Sequence record: PP952733.1
Strand: one strand, 5' to 3'
Length of the DNA: 64,000 nucleotides
From: Escherichia phage vB_EcoM_H12
Made by a program: the position numbers and the translations under genes. The notes below the pieces were generated by a model that saw nothing but the letters and a program-made list of their open reading frames with translations, made no database searches and had not been told where the DNA came from. This document shows positions 1 through 13,340 of this stretch, piece by piece. How positions within the stretch are numbered: the first letter of the stretch is position 1; the number at the start of each line of letters is the position of its first letter.

Positions 1-1100
1 GCCCCCTTAACATTCTCTTAACAATTTCTTAACAATCCCTACATAGTTATGCTTGTTAGAGACTTGTTAGCCCCTTGTTAAATCTCTGTTAAGACCACGT
101 AAAAGCCTTGTAAGAGCCTTTAGCATAGCCTTTAAAGCCCCTGTAAAGCCCTATAAAGAGCTTTCTACATAGTTGGGGTGTAATTACTAGGAAGAGACTA
201 AAAAGAGCTTATAAGGAGCTATAAAGGGCTTTTAAGAGGGCTATTTAAAAAGTCACTAAGAGGGAAAGGGAACGATAAGAAAAGAGATAGTGACCATGTT
301 AATAGCTTGTTAAAAAGATTAAACACTTGTTAGGAACTTGTTAATTATCTTAACAAAATAACTCTTTAAAATTAACTTGTTAGCTCTTGTTAGTCATCTG
401 TTAAGACTCTGTAAAGCCTATGTATCAACTGTTGAGACTCTGTTACAGCCTTGTTAGTTCTGTTAAGAATCTGTTAAGACCTCTGAAGAGATGTTAAGAG
501 GATGTAGTAGCTGTTAAGAGATTGTTAAGGATATTTTAAAATTTTGCAAAGGGATGGTAAGGGAGCTGTTAAGGGCTACCAAGCAGATATACATCTTTTA
601 CAGATATTTTTCAGTTCCTTCAAAGACCCTAAAAAATGACTTGATAGTCCTATTTTATAAAAATTTTAAAATTCTGAATAATTACCTAAACAGTCTTCTA
701 AAAATACAGGCATAAACAGGCTTATAAGATACCTTGTTAGTACCGTGTTAGACCTTGTGAGATAAGGTCTGTAAAGATATTCCTGTTAAGTTTGTTAAAA
801 CAGTCTATATAGAGGCTTAGTAATACCTAGTGAACACCTATAGAGGGTAACATAGCTGACATAGAGATTAAGAGGTGTATAGGAGCTTCTAAGAGGGTAT
901 AGAGGTATGGTTAAGGTGATTGTATAGGTTGTTAAGAGGGCTTGTTAGAAGGTTTATTAGAAGGCTATTTAGAAGGTTTATACAGAGGGGCTATTAAGAC
1001 CACTAGATAGTTACTAAGATACTATATAGTACTATATAACTATATAGAGAGTAAGATTAAGAAGGTTGTTAAGAAGGGTAGATATTTTATTCACATATGA
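1..1100. repeat. Non-coding array of about 30 short direct repeats (consensus YTGTTARR, often CTGTTAAGA or CTTGTTAG), plus TAAGAGG-like motifs
   Basis: Repeat copies counted by eye, nearly all in plus orientation, several at 10-12 bp spacing (e.g. 375/386/398 and 461/471/483); two inverted copies (TTAACAA) near position 20; no ORF of 60 aa or more in the track for 1-1180. Confidence 0.7.
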
Positions 1101-3782: not shown

Positions 3783-4364
3783 TCAAGAGTATTTTTTAGG
3801 CAGTAATGCACTGCGCTTGTTACTCTCTTCACTCAATAGTGCGATAAATTCATCACCTTTCCCTTTCCACGGACTGAATGTAGGGATGTGCTCTCGGATA
3901 GCCTCAATCACTGTTTTCAGGGCGTTGTTCTTTAACCACCAATCAGATACTGCCGAAGCTACAATGTAGTAAGCACCATCATCTGTGAAGATTGGCTCAG
4001 AGATACATGGTGAAATCATAGTGGTAATGATAGAACCATTATTCATGTAGTATGTTCTTTTTTCAACCTTGTCAAGCAGTTTATGAAGGTCTGCAAAGAG
4101 ACTTACCACCTCTTTATGGTCAATATCTTTTTCAAGATTTGCCCTGTATTTCAATAGTGCAGCATCAACCTCTTTATCATTGAATTTGAAGTATTGAACT
4201 TCTTCATTCACACATACACTGATGTTGTTGGTGTTTATCGTCAATTTGCACAGTTTGACTGGAGAGTTAATGTTGGTCTGAAAAAGTGCTACACAGCCTT
4301 CTACATTCCCGAAATGTTTGACTAATGTAACTTCTGGTTGGATGTGCTCATGTTCTTCTGACAT
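3783..4364 (-). CDS. hypothetical protein (193 aa)
   Basis: ORF in track. Confidence 0.5.
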   Translation of the reverse strand: MSEEHEHIQPEVTLVKHFGNVEGCVALFQTNINSPVKLCKLTINTNNISVCVNEEVQYFKFNDKEVDAALLKYRANLEKDIDHKEVVSLFADLHKLLDKVEKRTYYMNNGSIITTMISPCISEPIFTDDGAYYIVASAVSDWWLKNNALKTVIEAIREHIPTFSPWKGKGDEFIALLSEESNKRSALLPKKYS

Positions 4365-4708
4365 TATAGTTTCCTCATTAAATACTTTTTAAGTTGTGTG
4401 TTAGGTTTCTCAAAAACTTCTATAGAAGATATCTTGACAGACTCACCACGCATACCTGTATGTTTAAATATGTAATACTCTAACATCCCTATGTACTTTG
4501 CTGGTAAGTCATGTTTGACATAGACTGTTACAGAATCTTCAAATTCAACAACCTTTGTACCATCCTTGTAGTTAAACTCTTTAGGATGGTTGTAGTTGTC
4601 GATGTCGTACATTAAAAAGAGTCTTTTCCGTTGCATGTCAAGCTTATTGGTTAAAGATTCTTTGATATCTGAGAAGTTTTTATATACTATGACATGGAGC
4701 TTACTCAT
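4364..4708 (-). CDS. hypothetical protein (114 aa)
   Basis: ORF in track, abuts upstream gene. Confidence 0.5.
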   Translation of the reverse strand: MSKLHVIVYKNFSDIKESLTNKLDMQRKRLFLMYDIDNYNHPKEFNYKDGTKVVEFEDSVTVYVKHDLPAKYIGMLEYYIFKHTGMRGESVKISSIEVFEKPNTQLKKYLMRKL

Positions 4709-9507: not shown

Positions 9508-10923
9508 ATGAGCGAATTATTTAAACATGCGCACCTTCATGCAGGTCGAACTGAAAATGGTGCTGTAAACCATACTTCATCAATGTCTGCTCTGGTAGAC
9601 TTCTACAAAGCCGCTGGCTCAAGCCGTAGCAATGTAGAAATCTTACCAGACCTGTTCTACAAAGCTTTGCGTGAGGATGTTGATGTTGCAGTTCGTATTT
9701 TACTGCATATGCGAGATGTACGAGAAGGTATGGGTGAGCGTAAAGCTTTCCGAACTGTTTTACTTCAAGCGATTGAAGATAAAGTTTTAGAGCCTACACA
9801 GGTTCTTCGCATTATGGATAAGATTGCAGAACTTGGTCGTTTTGATGACTTCAAAATCTTCGTAGGTACTCGTTTTGAGACAGATGCCTTCAAACATTTA
9901 GAAGCAGCATTACTAGACCCTGCAACAGCAGGTTTAGCGGCTAAGTGGTTACCACGAGTAAAACCACGCCACAAACAGTTTGTAAAACGTTTCTGTAAGT
10001 TTGCAAACTTAAGTGAGAAGGAGTATCGCACGCTGTTATCTGCACTGTCTGATACGGTTGAGCAAAAAATCTCTGCTAATGAGTTTGGTAAGATTGACTA
10101 CAGCAAGATTCCTTCACTCGCTGCTGCACGTTACCAAAAGCTCTTTAACCGTAAAGATGGGGAACGTTACAAAGCTTACATCGAGTCCCTCTCAAAAGGT
10201 GAGGCTAAGATTAACGCTGGTGCTGTTTACCCATACGATGTGATTAAATCTATCAAGTATGGTAATGCAGATGTTGCTAATGAGCAGTGGAAAGCACTAC
10301 CAAACTGGATGGCAGAAGGTGAGAACATCTTGTGTATGACTGATGTTTCAAGCTCAATGTCTTGGGTGAATCTTGGTTCAATCACTGCCCTTGATATTGG
10401 TGTATCACTTGCTTTGTATGTAGCAGAACGCAACACTGGTTGCTTTAAGAATGAGTTAATGGTTTACTCAACAAACCCTCACTTCATCGAACTGAGTGGT
10501 GATTTACGAAACCGTCATCGTCAGGTAATGCGTCATGTTGAATACGGTTCAACTAACTTACAAGCAGCTTTTGACCGTATTCTTGAGGTAGGTAAGCGAA
10601 ACAACTTGACTCAGAAAGATATGCCAAGTAAGCTTATTATCTTCTCCGATATGGAGTTCAATCAGGTTGATGGAGCTAACGGTCGTACAAACTTTGAAGC
10701 AATTCAGAGTAAGTACAAAAAAGCTGGATACGAAATGCCACAACTAGTATTCTGGTACTTAGCAAACCGTAATGGTACTTGCGAAGTATCTGTTAAGGAT
10801 AATGGTGTAGCAATGGTATCAGGGTTCTCTCCAGCCACTTTAAAAGCTCTGCTTGGTGGTGAGAAGTTTGACCCAATCAGCATAATGCTCAAAGCGGTAA
10901 TGATTGACCGTTACATCTGGTAA
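9508..10923 (+). CDS. vWA-domain protein with MIDAS motif and long helical N-terminal domain; candidate Ro60-like (TROVE-vWA) protein
   Basis: DxSxS MIDAS motif (CMTDVSSSMSW) about residue 277 preceded by hydrophobic strand; about 270-aa N-terminal domain; TROVE-like assignment is inference from domain layout only. Confidence 0.6.
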   Translation: MSELFKHAHLHAGRTENGAVNHTSSMSALVDFYKAAGSSRSNVEILPDLFYKALREDVDVAVRILLHMRDVREGMGERKAFRTVLLQAIEDKVLEPTQVLRIMDKIAELGRFDDFKIFVGTRFETDAFKHLEAALLDPATAGLAAKWLPRVKPRHKQFVKRFCKFANLSEKEYRTLLSALSDTVEQKISANEFGKIDYSKIPSLAAARYQKLFNRKDGERYKAYIESLSKGEAKINAGAVYPYDVIKSIKYGNADVANEQWKALPNWMAEGENILCMTDVSSSMSWVNLGSITALDIGVSLALYVAERNTGCFKNELMVYSTNPHFIELSGDLRNRHRQVMRHVEYGSTNLQAAFDRILEVGKRNNLTQKDMPSKLIIFSDMEFNQVDGANGRTNFEAIQSKYKKAGYEMPQLVFWYLANRNGTCEVSVKDNGVAMVSGFSPATLKALLGGEKFDPISIMLKAVMIDRYIW

Positions 10924-11932: not shown

Positions 11933-12064
11933 CAGAAGACCGTTTACAGCAAAACTTAAACAATCTATTTCTCCGGTAAAGAAAAGGCGAAGGTTCGATT
12001 CCTTCACTCGGCAGATGTCGAGTTGGTGTAATGGTAGCACTTAAGATGATAAACAACGGTCTGG
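11933..12064 (+). ncRNA. Stem-closed element D with permuted tRNA-like module (Y RNA-like candidate)
   Basis: Closing stem AGACCGTT/AACGGTCT; inside, in order: T-arm GAAGG-TTCGATT-CCTTC (11989-12005), 7-bp hairpin ACTCGGC-AGAT-GTCGAGT (12006-12023), D-arm-like TGGTGTAATGGTAGCAC; no anticodon arm or CCA. Confidence 0.45.
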
Positions 12065-12462: not shown

Positions 12463-12491
12463 TTGACATTGAGATGTGACCACTTTATAGT
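12463..12491 (+). promoter_or_regulatory. Sigma70-like promoter TTGACA-17-TATAGT inside tRNA array
   Basis: TTGACA at 12463-12468, TATAGT at 12486-12491, upstream A-tract. Confidence 0.55.
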
Positions 12492-12783
12492 AACTAAAAT
12501 ACTTCATAATATGTATAATTCAAACACCAATACATGAGCGTTAGACGTAACACAATGTGGGGAAATTTGTTGTACATATTCTGAATAGTTTTCGTTGCGT
12601 AGCGTCTATTTTGCAAATTTAAAATAAATGCAAACGACAATGTTTTTCTGGCAGTAGCTTGATAGGCTAAACACCAGTGAGGTCTTCCAATCCCTCATCA
12701 AAGAATTTGGCGTACTAGCCCACGGTATGATTAATAAGGTGGGCATCTTTAAGTACTTTCTAAGAGAGTCTTTAAAGATTAAT

Positions 12784-12860
12784 GCACCCTTAGTTCAATT
12801 GGATAGAGCAACGGTCTTCTAAATCGTTAGTTACAGGTTCGAATCCTGTAGGGTGTGCCA
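12784..12860 (+). tRNA. tRNA-Arg (anticodon UCU)
   Basis: Acceptor GCACCCT/AGGGTGT, anticodon stem ACGGT/ATCGT with loop CTTCTAA, T-loop TTCGAAT, CCA encoded. Confidence 0.8.
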
Positions 12861-13001
12861 AATAGTTAGCAGATTGCTTAGACGACCTTATCGGGTCTCC
12901 GTGTAAGGAGGTGGTCTGTATCTCATGTTTCCAGAACATGTAAATAATCTGAGAAGGGGCTTTACAGTGTTGCGAAAATACGGTAAGCTTCGAATTATAG
13001 T

Positions 13002-13084
13002 GTGGGACGATGTTAAGACTCTAAGGCATGAGCAACGGCCTCCAAAACCGTTTCAAAGGGGTTCAACTCCTCCGTCCCATGCCA
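13002..13084 (+). tRNA. tRNA-Trp-like (anticodon CCA), atypical expanded D region
   Basis: Acceptor GTGGGAC/GTCCCAT, anticodon loop CTCCAAA, T-arm AGGGG-TTCAACT-CCTCC, CCA encoded; about 26 nt between acceptor and anticodon stem. Confidence 0.45.
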
Positions 13085-13097
13085 AAGTCTTATTAGG

Positions 13098-13185
13098 GGT
13101 AGGTAGCGGCTAATGGCAGCCAAACAGTCTTGAAAACTGTTGCCACTGTAGAGATACGGTGAGGGTTCGACTCCTTTACTTACCG
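13098..13185 (+). tRNA. tRNA-Ser (anticodon UGA), long variable arm
   Basis: Anticodon stem ACAGT/ACTGT with loop CTTGAAA, long variable arm, T-loop TTCGACT; CCA not encoded. Confidence 0.75.
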
Positions 13186-13340
13186 CCTAATAAGATTTAA
13201 AACCAAGCTTCATTCGGATGTTGCTTTGGTATCCCTCGTGTATTGTCGTACACAAGTAAAGCACCTAGTAGGTGTCACGGAGAAGAGATAATATCAAGCT
13301 CTCCAAAGGTTCTAGTCACCGGATTAAACAAGACTATGCA

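Follow-up and report, generated by a model that had tools for sequence, protein, structure and literature searches.

A conserved, structurally non-canonical tRNA-Trp candidate in the tRNA array of Felix O1-like phages

The tRNA array and its Trp-like element

The window analysed here is a 64,000-nt stretch of the genome of Escherichia phage vB_EcoM_H12 (PP952733.1), a Felix O1-like myovirus (genus Felixounavirus, subfamily Ounavirinae). ARAGORN finds 26 tRNA genes in it, between 11089 and 16114 and all on the + strand, which together specify 19 amino acids, Trp alone being absent. The 6.3-kb tRNA region is 96-98% identical to that of many Escherichia and Salmonella phages. A tRNA-Trp-like element (13002-13084) sits in the 238-nt gap between the end of tRNA-Arg(tct) at 12860 and the start of tRNA-Ser(tga) at 13098. 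It lies on the same strand as its neighbours and, like 25/26 of them, encodes its CCA, which in those neighbours is mostly followed by A. A near-consensus sigma-70-like site lies upstream on that strand, and the stretch from there to the element contains no + strand terminator-like site; the element would probably be co-transcribed with tRNA-Arg and tRNA-Ser. The features are as follows.

12463-12491 (+): promoter-like site, TTGACA, 17 nt, TATAGT; 11/12 matches, a consensus match only
13002-13084 (+): tRNA-Trp-like element, inside the 26-gene tRNA array
13002-13009 (+): 5' strand of the acceptor stem, GTGGGACG, pairing with 13073-13080
13010-13018 (+): single-stranded linker ATGTTAAGA, 9 nt from acceptor stem to D hairpin (2 nt in canonical tRNAs)
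13019-13033 (+): D-arm equivalent; stem CTC (13019-13021) / GAG (13030-13032), 8-nt loop TAAGGCAT (13022-13029) containing GG, then C13033
13034-13052 (+): anticodon arm; 5-bp stem 13034-13038 / 13048-13052 (positions 26-30 / 40-44), 9-nt loop CCTCCAAAA
13053-13057 (+): short variable region TCAAA, as in a class I tRNA, with no long variable arm; invariant in the 13 variants described below
13058-13072 (+): T-arm; GGGG / CCTC, 4 bp including a G.U (5 bp counting A13057.C13073), loop TTCAACT
13073-13084 (+): the acceptor stem's 3' strand, CGTCCCAT (13073-13080), G73 (13081) and encoded CCA (13082-13084); GCCA invariant

The acceptor stem pairs GTGGGAC(G) at 13002-13009 with (C)GTCCCAT at 13073-13080, giving 8 bp, or 7 bp if G13009 is taken as position 8. 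The acceptor/T branch can accordingly be drawn as 8+4, or as 7+5 with an A.C mismatch, and has 12 layers in both cases. The anticodon loop CTCCAAA (13040-13046) presents U33 at 13041 and the anticodon CCA at 13042-13044, followed by A37 and A38, and C31.A39 is unpaired. All the parts listed in the first-pass annotation (acceptor stem, anticodon arm with CTCCAAA and anticodon CCA, T-arm, encoded CCA) are thus present, and its estimate of about 26 nt ahead of the anticodon stem is exact: 26 nt (13009-13034) run from a 7-bp acceptor stem to position 27. It had also missed a canonical 4-bp D-stem, rightly, the supported D-stem being of 3 bp. What it called an expanded D region does contain surplus nucleotides, but most of these belong to the acceptor-to-D connector and not to an enlarged D-loop.

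The core departs from that of a canonical tRNA in three respects: a 9-nt linker stands in for nucleotides 8-9, the D-stem is of 3 bp, and a one-pair shift of the anticodon stem leaves C31.A39 open. The element has no place for U8 and the usual core triples, which weighs against its being a functional tRNA-Trp.

A neighbouring tRNA, a protein gene upstream of the array and a short repeat were also noted. (i) The adjoining tRNA-Ser(tga) gene (13098-13187, +) is the sole tRNA of the 26 without an encoded CCA, its end CGCC being followed by TAA; its top Rfam model is tRNA-Sec (36.9 bits, under the gathering score), and its homologue in Pectobacterium phage Arno162 (L004:3111-3199) receives no ARAGORN call. 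(ii) Directly upstream of the array, a 471-aa protein (9508-10923, +) with Pfam domains DUF2828 and DUF7788 is annotated in relatives as RNA-binding protein, vWFA protein or DUF2828 family protein, and shows no sequence match to solved structures; a Ro60/TROVE-like tie to the tRNA-like RNAs close by is speculation. (iii) An 8-mer, TCTTAACA, occurs three times in the first 355 bases of the window (at 16, 27 and 348; 6-34 and 348), and is probably unrelated.

Detection by gene finders and databases

ARAGORN at default settings makes no call at 13002-13084, and at relaxed thresholds reports only a mis-folded '???' (unknown type). The top Rfam match is tRNA-Sec (RF01852), at 23 bits versus a gathering score of 47. 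Both the missing call and the sub-threshold match weigh against a functional tRNA-Trp, as does the ordinary single-sequence fold energy (z = -1.5). Among 60 relatives listed, none has a tRNA annotated at the site, which is left bare or lies under a "hypothetical protein". Deleting 6 nt in silico, starting at 13010, 13011, 13013, 13014 or 13015, yields a default ARAGORN call of tRNA-Trp(cca); thus a surplus of about 6 nt in the acceptor-to-D connector is what hides the gene. A covariance model derived from the element finds one copy per genome and no paralogues, with canonical tRNAs aligned end to end at only 15-38 bits.

The element had been put forward as the only Trp-decoding candidate of the array, and this holds: no conventional tRNA-Trp, the finding named beforehand as telling against the proposal, is detected by ARAGORN elsewhere in the window or in the complete close relative MT322327, whose tRNA set matches these 26 and includes no other tRNA-Trp. 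The paper on the Felix O1 genome counts 22 tRNAs by tRNAscan-SE, with Trp unmentioned (PMC3185647), and a 2025 study of the Moogle-like phage Sf14 gives 26 tRNAs for 19 amino acids (PMC12482277). Full-text literature searches found no description of the Trp-like element.

Conservation and distribution

The element is found by BLAST in 235 phage records, compared with 239 containing most of the array. In divergent lineages its identity to the window is 74-90%, in the range of the flanking true tRNAs (61-93%) and above the upstream spacer (35-52%). A scan of metagenomes gained three useful lineages (L163, L166 and L171), while a 14-mer scan of IMG/VR returned mostly chance matches plus near-identical phages, and gapped-pattern scans of IMG/VR no new lineage. 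One genome each of 185,579 bacterial and archaeal species was scanned with the pattern and gave nothing; the Trp-like pattern is therefore taken as phage-specific. Contig L171 contains, in addition, a segment (L171:2641-2715) that the Trp-like covariance model scores at 22 bits, as it does some true tRNAs, but that receives no ARAGORN call; it may be a missed tRNA in a metagenomic phage contig.

Erwinia phage phiEa21-4 (Kolesnikvirus) has a canonical tRNA-Trp (L130:4785-4860), and searching its sequence with the element covariance model finds no copy of the odd Trp-like element. The odd element and the canonical tRNA-Trp thus show a complementary distribution in this phage. The 15-nt anticodon-arm core CGGCCTCCAAAACCG of the element, including C31.A39, is identical in the canonical tRNA-Trp of phiEa21-4, so the C31.A39 mismatch is no part of the novelty.

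Covariation across variants

The BLAST, IMG/VR and metagenome scans together provided 39 copies of the element, which reduce to 13 distinct sequences. These come from Felixounavirus, Mooglevirus (Moogle, Michonne, Sf13), Suspvirus (SUSP2), the Pectobacterium phages Arno162 and Wc4-1, and the metagenomic contigs L163, L164, L166 and L171. The structure tested had an 8-bp acceptor stem, a 3-bp D hairpin, a 5-bp anticodon stem with a 9-nt loop and a 4-bp T-stem. In the 13 variants 98% of pair cells are standard and 9/23 pairs are changed on both sides, values that none of 500 shuffles reaches; sliding the partners by 1-3 columns, as a control, abolishes the signal. A blind RNAalifold run on this alignment arrives at these helices too and chooses the 8/4 branch. 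Comparison of homologs, proposed at the outset as a check, thus reveals compensatory changes in all four helices, with the anticodon, G73, CCA, the D-loop GG and the T-loop TTC invariant.

In the acceptor stem, pair 1-72 covaries (A-U in 8 variants, G.U in 3 including the window, G-C in 2), as does pair 2-71 (U-A in 11, C-G in 1), while the remaining six pairs are invariant. Because G13009 and C13073 are both among the invariant positions, covariation does not separate the 8/4 branch from a 7/5 branch with an A49.C65 mismatch. Double-sided changes affect two of the three D-hairpin pairs, U-A giving way to A-U in 4 variants and C-G to U-A or U.G, so that CTC/GAG becomes CAC/GTG, CAT/GTG or CGT/ACG. 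In the anticodon stem, paired in 100% of cells, four of five pairs are changed on both sides, AACGG/CCGTT being replaced by GTAAG/CTTAC, GTAGG/CCTAC or ACTTG/CAAGT; the covarying 5-bp stem is 26-30 / 40-44, and 31-39 is C.A, or C.C in the Pectobacterium phages. A T-stem G-C pair has become U-A, on both sides, in Moogle and Sf13. Invariant in the 13 variants are the linker ATGTTAAGA, the D-loop GG, TCCAAA, TCAAA, GGTTC and G73-CCA.

Some variants carry features that would destabilise the fold and weigh against a functional tRNA-Trp. T-stem mismatches occur in 3/13 variants, as U.U (MBP469, L103; 4/39 copies) or G.G (L164; one copy), and in the acceptor stem the Pectobacterium phages have a bulged U and contig L171 has two mismatches.

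Other pairings of the D region fared poorly. An ancestral D-stem, GTTA/GAGC, lines up with G10-C13 / G22-C25 in E. coli tRNA-Trp; 5/13 variants break it, without compensation. Neither it nor the alternative TGTT/AGCA has covariation support (in 5/13 variants the third pair is lost, and the fourth pairs in none), and TGTT/AGCA also requires A13034, which covaries with T13052. Linker ATG (13010-13012) can pair with D-loop CAT (13027-13029) in 13/13 variants, and the changes there are one-sided, for which reason we advance this pairing as a hypothesis; it would stack on the CTC/GAG helix as a pseudoknot. No 8-9-mer complement of the invariant linker occurs in the tRNA array region.

Comparison with known tRNAs

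Among the sequences tested, namely the 26 array tRNAs, E. coli trpT and the phiEa21-4 tRNA-Trp, the best pairwise matches to the element are the two tRNA-Trp. Shared with both are the loop CUCCAAA, G73-CCA, G5:C68, the D-loop GG, a T-loop TTCRA and a short variable loop, and the A1:U72 of canonical tRNA-Trp is common to most element variants. Unlike canonical tRNA-Trp, the element has a connector of 9 nt rather than 2 and a shifted 3-bp D-stem, and it lacks U8; its 31-39 is open, with 26-44 paired in compensation, and its branch is 8/4, or 7/5 with a mismatch.

In its top Rfam family, tRNA-Sec, the acceptor stem is longer than usual, and both the anticodon stem and the D region are extended. 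Membership of that family was rejected on the score (23 bits versus 47), the anticodon CCA rather than UCA, and the lack both of a long variable arm and of a 6-bp D-stem with a 4-nt loop.

More telling likenesses are to 8/4 tRNAs, whose 12-bp branch (8-bp acceptor plus 4-bp T-stem) the element may share, its 8th pair showing no covariation, and to "E-loop" tRNAs, which have an extra loop between acceptor stem and D-stem (PMC5389517, PMC7609411). Both kinds are known from metagenomes and metatranscriptomes, and 8/4 tRNA-Ser and tRNA-His have been reported in phages (PMC5389517; reviewed in PMC7609411). Like the element, 8/4 and E-loop tRNAs are found in tRNA gene clusters. They are, however, either Ser/Sec-like with long variable arms or acidobacterial and of uncertain identity, whereas the element is class I with the 5-nt variable region TCAAA. 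It differs from them further in having a complete Trp identity set and in occurring in virulent enterobacterial phages of three or more named genera, besides unclassified and metagenomic lineages.

Identity and proposed function

Recognition by tryptophanyl-tRNA synthetase can be compared position by position. A co-crystal study of E. coli TrpRS found that the anticodon triplet and G73 are recognised, with A1:U72 and G5:C68 as minor elements, and its main text leaves the D-arm and D-loop unmentioned (PMC12135181). C34, C35, A36 and G73 are invariant in the 13 variants, G5:C68 is present in 13/13 and A1:U72 in 8/13; in the window 1-72 is G.U rather than A-U, a point against a functional tRNA-Trp. 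The 12 layers of the acceptor/T stack are kept, as are the GG in the D-loop and the TTC in the T-loop, so the tRNA elbow can form.

We propose, with a probability of about 0.6, that the element is a functional, structurally non-canonical tRNA-Trp of Felix O1-like phages, charged by the host TrpRS and decoding. It would be transcribed with the surrounding tRNA array, cut by RNase P at 13002 and trimmed at its 3' end until the encoded CCA halts trimming. Host TrpRS may then charge it through C34-C35-A36, G73, A1:U72 (G.U in this window) and G5:C68, and the charged tRNA would read UGG codons. We count in favour of this proposal that the element fills the one amino-acid gap of the array.

Conserved structure is a mark of a functional RNA, not of translation as such, and the element may instead be a tRNA-like RNA without a decoding role: a decoy for, or a sponge of, some host nuclease or enzyme that acts on tRNA-Trp, the partner of a phage protein, or a processing signal in the polycistronic tRNA transcript. 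We regard this as possible though unlikely. That neither the 9-nt linker nor the variable loop varies at all would suggest a specific ligand or a tertiary motif, there are further unconventional tRNA-like and tmRNA-like elements in the array region, and irregular 8/4 and E-loop tRNAs elsewhere were uncharged or unused in translation (PMC5389517). The one E-loop tRNA tested showed no in vitro aminoacylation by E. coli GlyRS or ThrRS (PMC5389517), a result that weighs against the functional reading of the element as well, and so does the fact that 9-nt connectors lack a precedent proven to work in E. coli translation. Yet a decoy would have no need for invariance in every TrpRS identity element, in U33, in A37-A38, in the GG of the D-loop and the TTC of the T-loop, and in a precise G73-CCA end. 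The element also corresponds to just the amino acid that the array lacks, and is distributed in complement to the canonical tRNA-Trp of Kolesnikvirus. A decoder of altered specificity is a quite improbable variant of the tRNA reading, in which the remodelled D region or core would allow, for example, UGA read-through, or the 9-nt loop a changed frame. Its appeal is that the D region and 31-39 are exactly the departures from canonical tRNA-Trp; the Hirsh suppressor, a D-arm mutant of E. coli tRNA-Trp, reads through UGA. However, stop-codon usage in the window gives no sign of UGA recoding: TGA is the ordinary stop of 17/80 long ORFs, with short in-frame extensions and no conserved read-through candidate. 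The C31.A39 loop context also occurs in the canonical tRNA-Trp of phiEa21-4, which means that the 9-nt loop is not tied to the odd D region.

The first-pass annotation had left open the choice between a functional tRNA with an unusual D-arm and a pseudogene. Covariation and the invariant functional positions, together with conservation, favour the former and speak against the latter. It is true that gene finders reject the element, that its D-stem is disrupted relative to E. coli tRNA-Trp and that a few variants have mismatches, as would suit a decaying tRNA-Trp pseudogene that looks conserved only through the close kinship of the phages. Such decay is more improbable still, given nine compensatory double changes across lineages just 74-79% identical, conservation above that of the spacer and equal to that of true tRNAs, and retention in about 235/239 array-bearing genomes. 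As for protein coding, a 62-aa ORF (12925-13113) is present in the window behind a strong Shine-Dalgarno-like TAAGGAGGTG, is called a hypothetical protein in some relatives and carries a CDS annotation in phage E9, among others. It is interrupted by in-frame stops in Michonne, Moogle, SUSP2 and L166, and its frame is shifted by indels in Arno162 (+2/+1 nt) and L171 (+1 nt); it also spans the element and continues into tRNA-Ser, and substitutions follow RNA pairing rather than codon position. We reject the coding reading of 12925-13113 on the strength of the stops and frameshifts in relatives, and consider it scarcely credible.

If the tRNA-Trp candidate is charged and used, Felix O1-like phages, which are widely used in typing and biocontrol, would have tRNAs for all 20 amino acids and not the reported 19, and a conserved tRNA would have been missed by standard annotation in hundreds of deposited genomes. 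It would also mean that a natural tRNA whose acceptor-to-D connector runs to 9 nt is tolerated by TrpRS, EF-Tu and the ribosome of E. coli. The extent to which the tRNA core is required is at issue here, and tRNA engineering would gain a natural scaffold in the best-studied host. Were the element a non-decoding mimic, it would be a conserved phage RNA with some target of its own. A bolder extension, which we hold to be improbable, is that the remodelled core (invariant linker, possible pseudoknot, 8/4 branch, open 31-39) is itself an adaptation, the RNA being Trp-charged and active on E. coli ribosomes while also allowing either escape from a host factor that detects the core of canonical tRNA-Trp or altered decoding such as UGA read-through; it would then represent a natural, genetically tractable non-canonical tRNA fold active in E. 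coli translation.

Other RNA elements in the region

Several further elements of the region have an RNA-like character. A tmRNA-like messenger domain (12600-12745, +) reads AAAUAAAU GCA AAC GAC AAU GUU UUU CUG GCA GUA GCU UGA UAG and encodes the tag-like ANDNVFLAVA followed by two stops; the stop codons lie in a hairpin loop, with a covarying hairpin after it. The tag resembles the SsrA tag of E. coli, ANDENYALAA. Homologues of the domain (L130:~4290-4450, L176:~390-520, L177 and L178) are conserved and unannotated in unrelated phages, with tag versions ANDAQFLAVA in phiEa21-4, ANDNTFLAVA in Vi01 and UPM2146, and ANEEMYLAVA in the Klebsiella siphophage ZX4. ARAGORN calls permuted tmRNAs here only at relaxed thresholds, the Rfam tmRNA and tmRNA_permuted models match below threshold (14-25 bits), and no convincing tRNA-like domain for the element was found within the window.

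Directly upstream of the Trp-like gene, a conserved motif, TAAGGAGGTGGTCTGTATCTC (within 12901-12990, +), is almost perfectly complementary to the 3' end of 16S rRNA. Next comes a covarying hairpin (ATGTT/AACAT, GTGA/TCAC, CAGAC/GTCTG, CTGAC/GTCAG), and most lineages then have a second hairpin with a GNRA loop. Motif and hairpin also occur in L163, L171, L006, L009, L166 and L130:4615-4705, the last lying upstream of tRNA-Gly and the canonical tRNA-Trp of phiEa21-4, and are absent from Arno162. Rfam gives nothing significant at 12901-12990, with chance-level microRNA and lncRNA matches only (E > 4).

Three more stretches contain tRNA-like parts. (i) The segment 11975-12045 (+) of the window has a permuted or broken-tRNA look, in that a T-arm and 3' acceptor strand (GAAGGTTCGATTCCTTC ACTCGGCA) directly precede a complementary 5' acceptor strand and D-arm (GTCGAGT TG GTGTAATGGTAGCAC); 11956-12006 gives a partial Rfam tRNA match (22 bits), and small CDSs are annotated there in phage E9. 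(ii) An extra, unannotated tRNA-like element of about 120 nt, absent from the window, lies between tRNA-Arg(tct) and the Shine-Dalgarno-like motif in Michonne (L006:~125-300) and SUSP2 (L009). It has an acceptor stem GGTCAAG / CTTGACT, a T-arm GTAGGTTCGACTCCTAC, a GCCA end and a long unusual body. (iii) In phiEa21-4 an unannotated RNA-like stretch of about 170 nt (L130:4086-4256) comes just after tRNA-Arg(tct). It starts with GGGTGATTCTG, like a tmRNA 5' end, and ends with GAGGTTCGAATCCTTAATCACTCGCCA, comprising a T-arm, an acceptor strand and GCCA; the Trp-like covariance model gives 20.5 bits to its 3' part (4167-4252).
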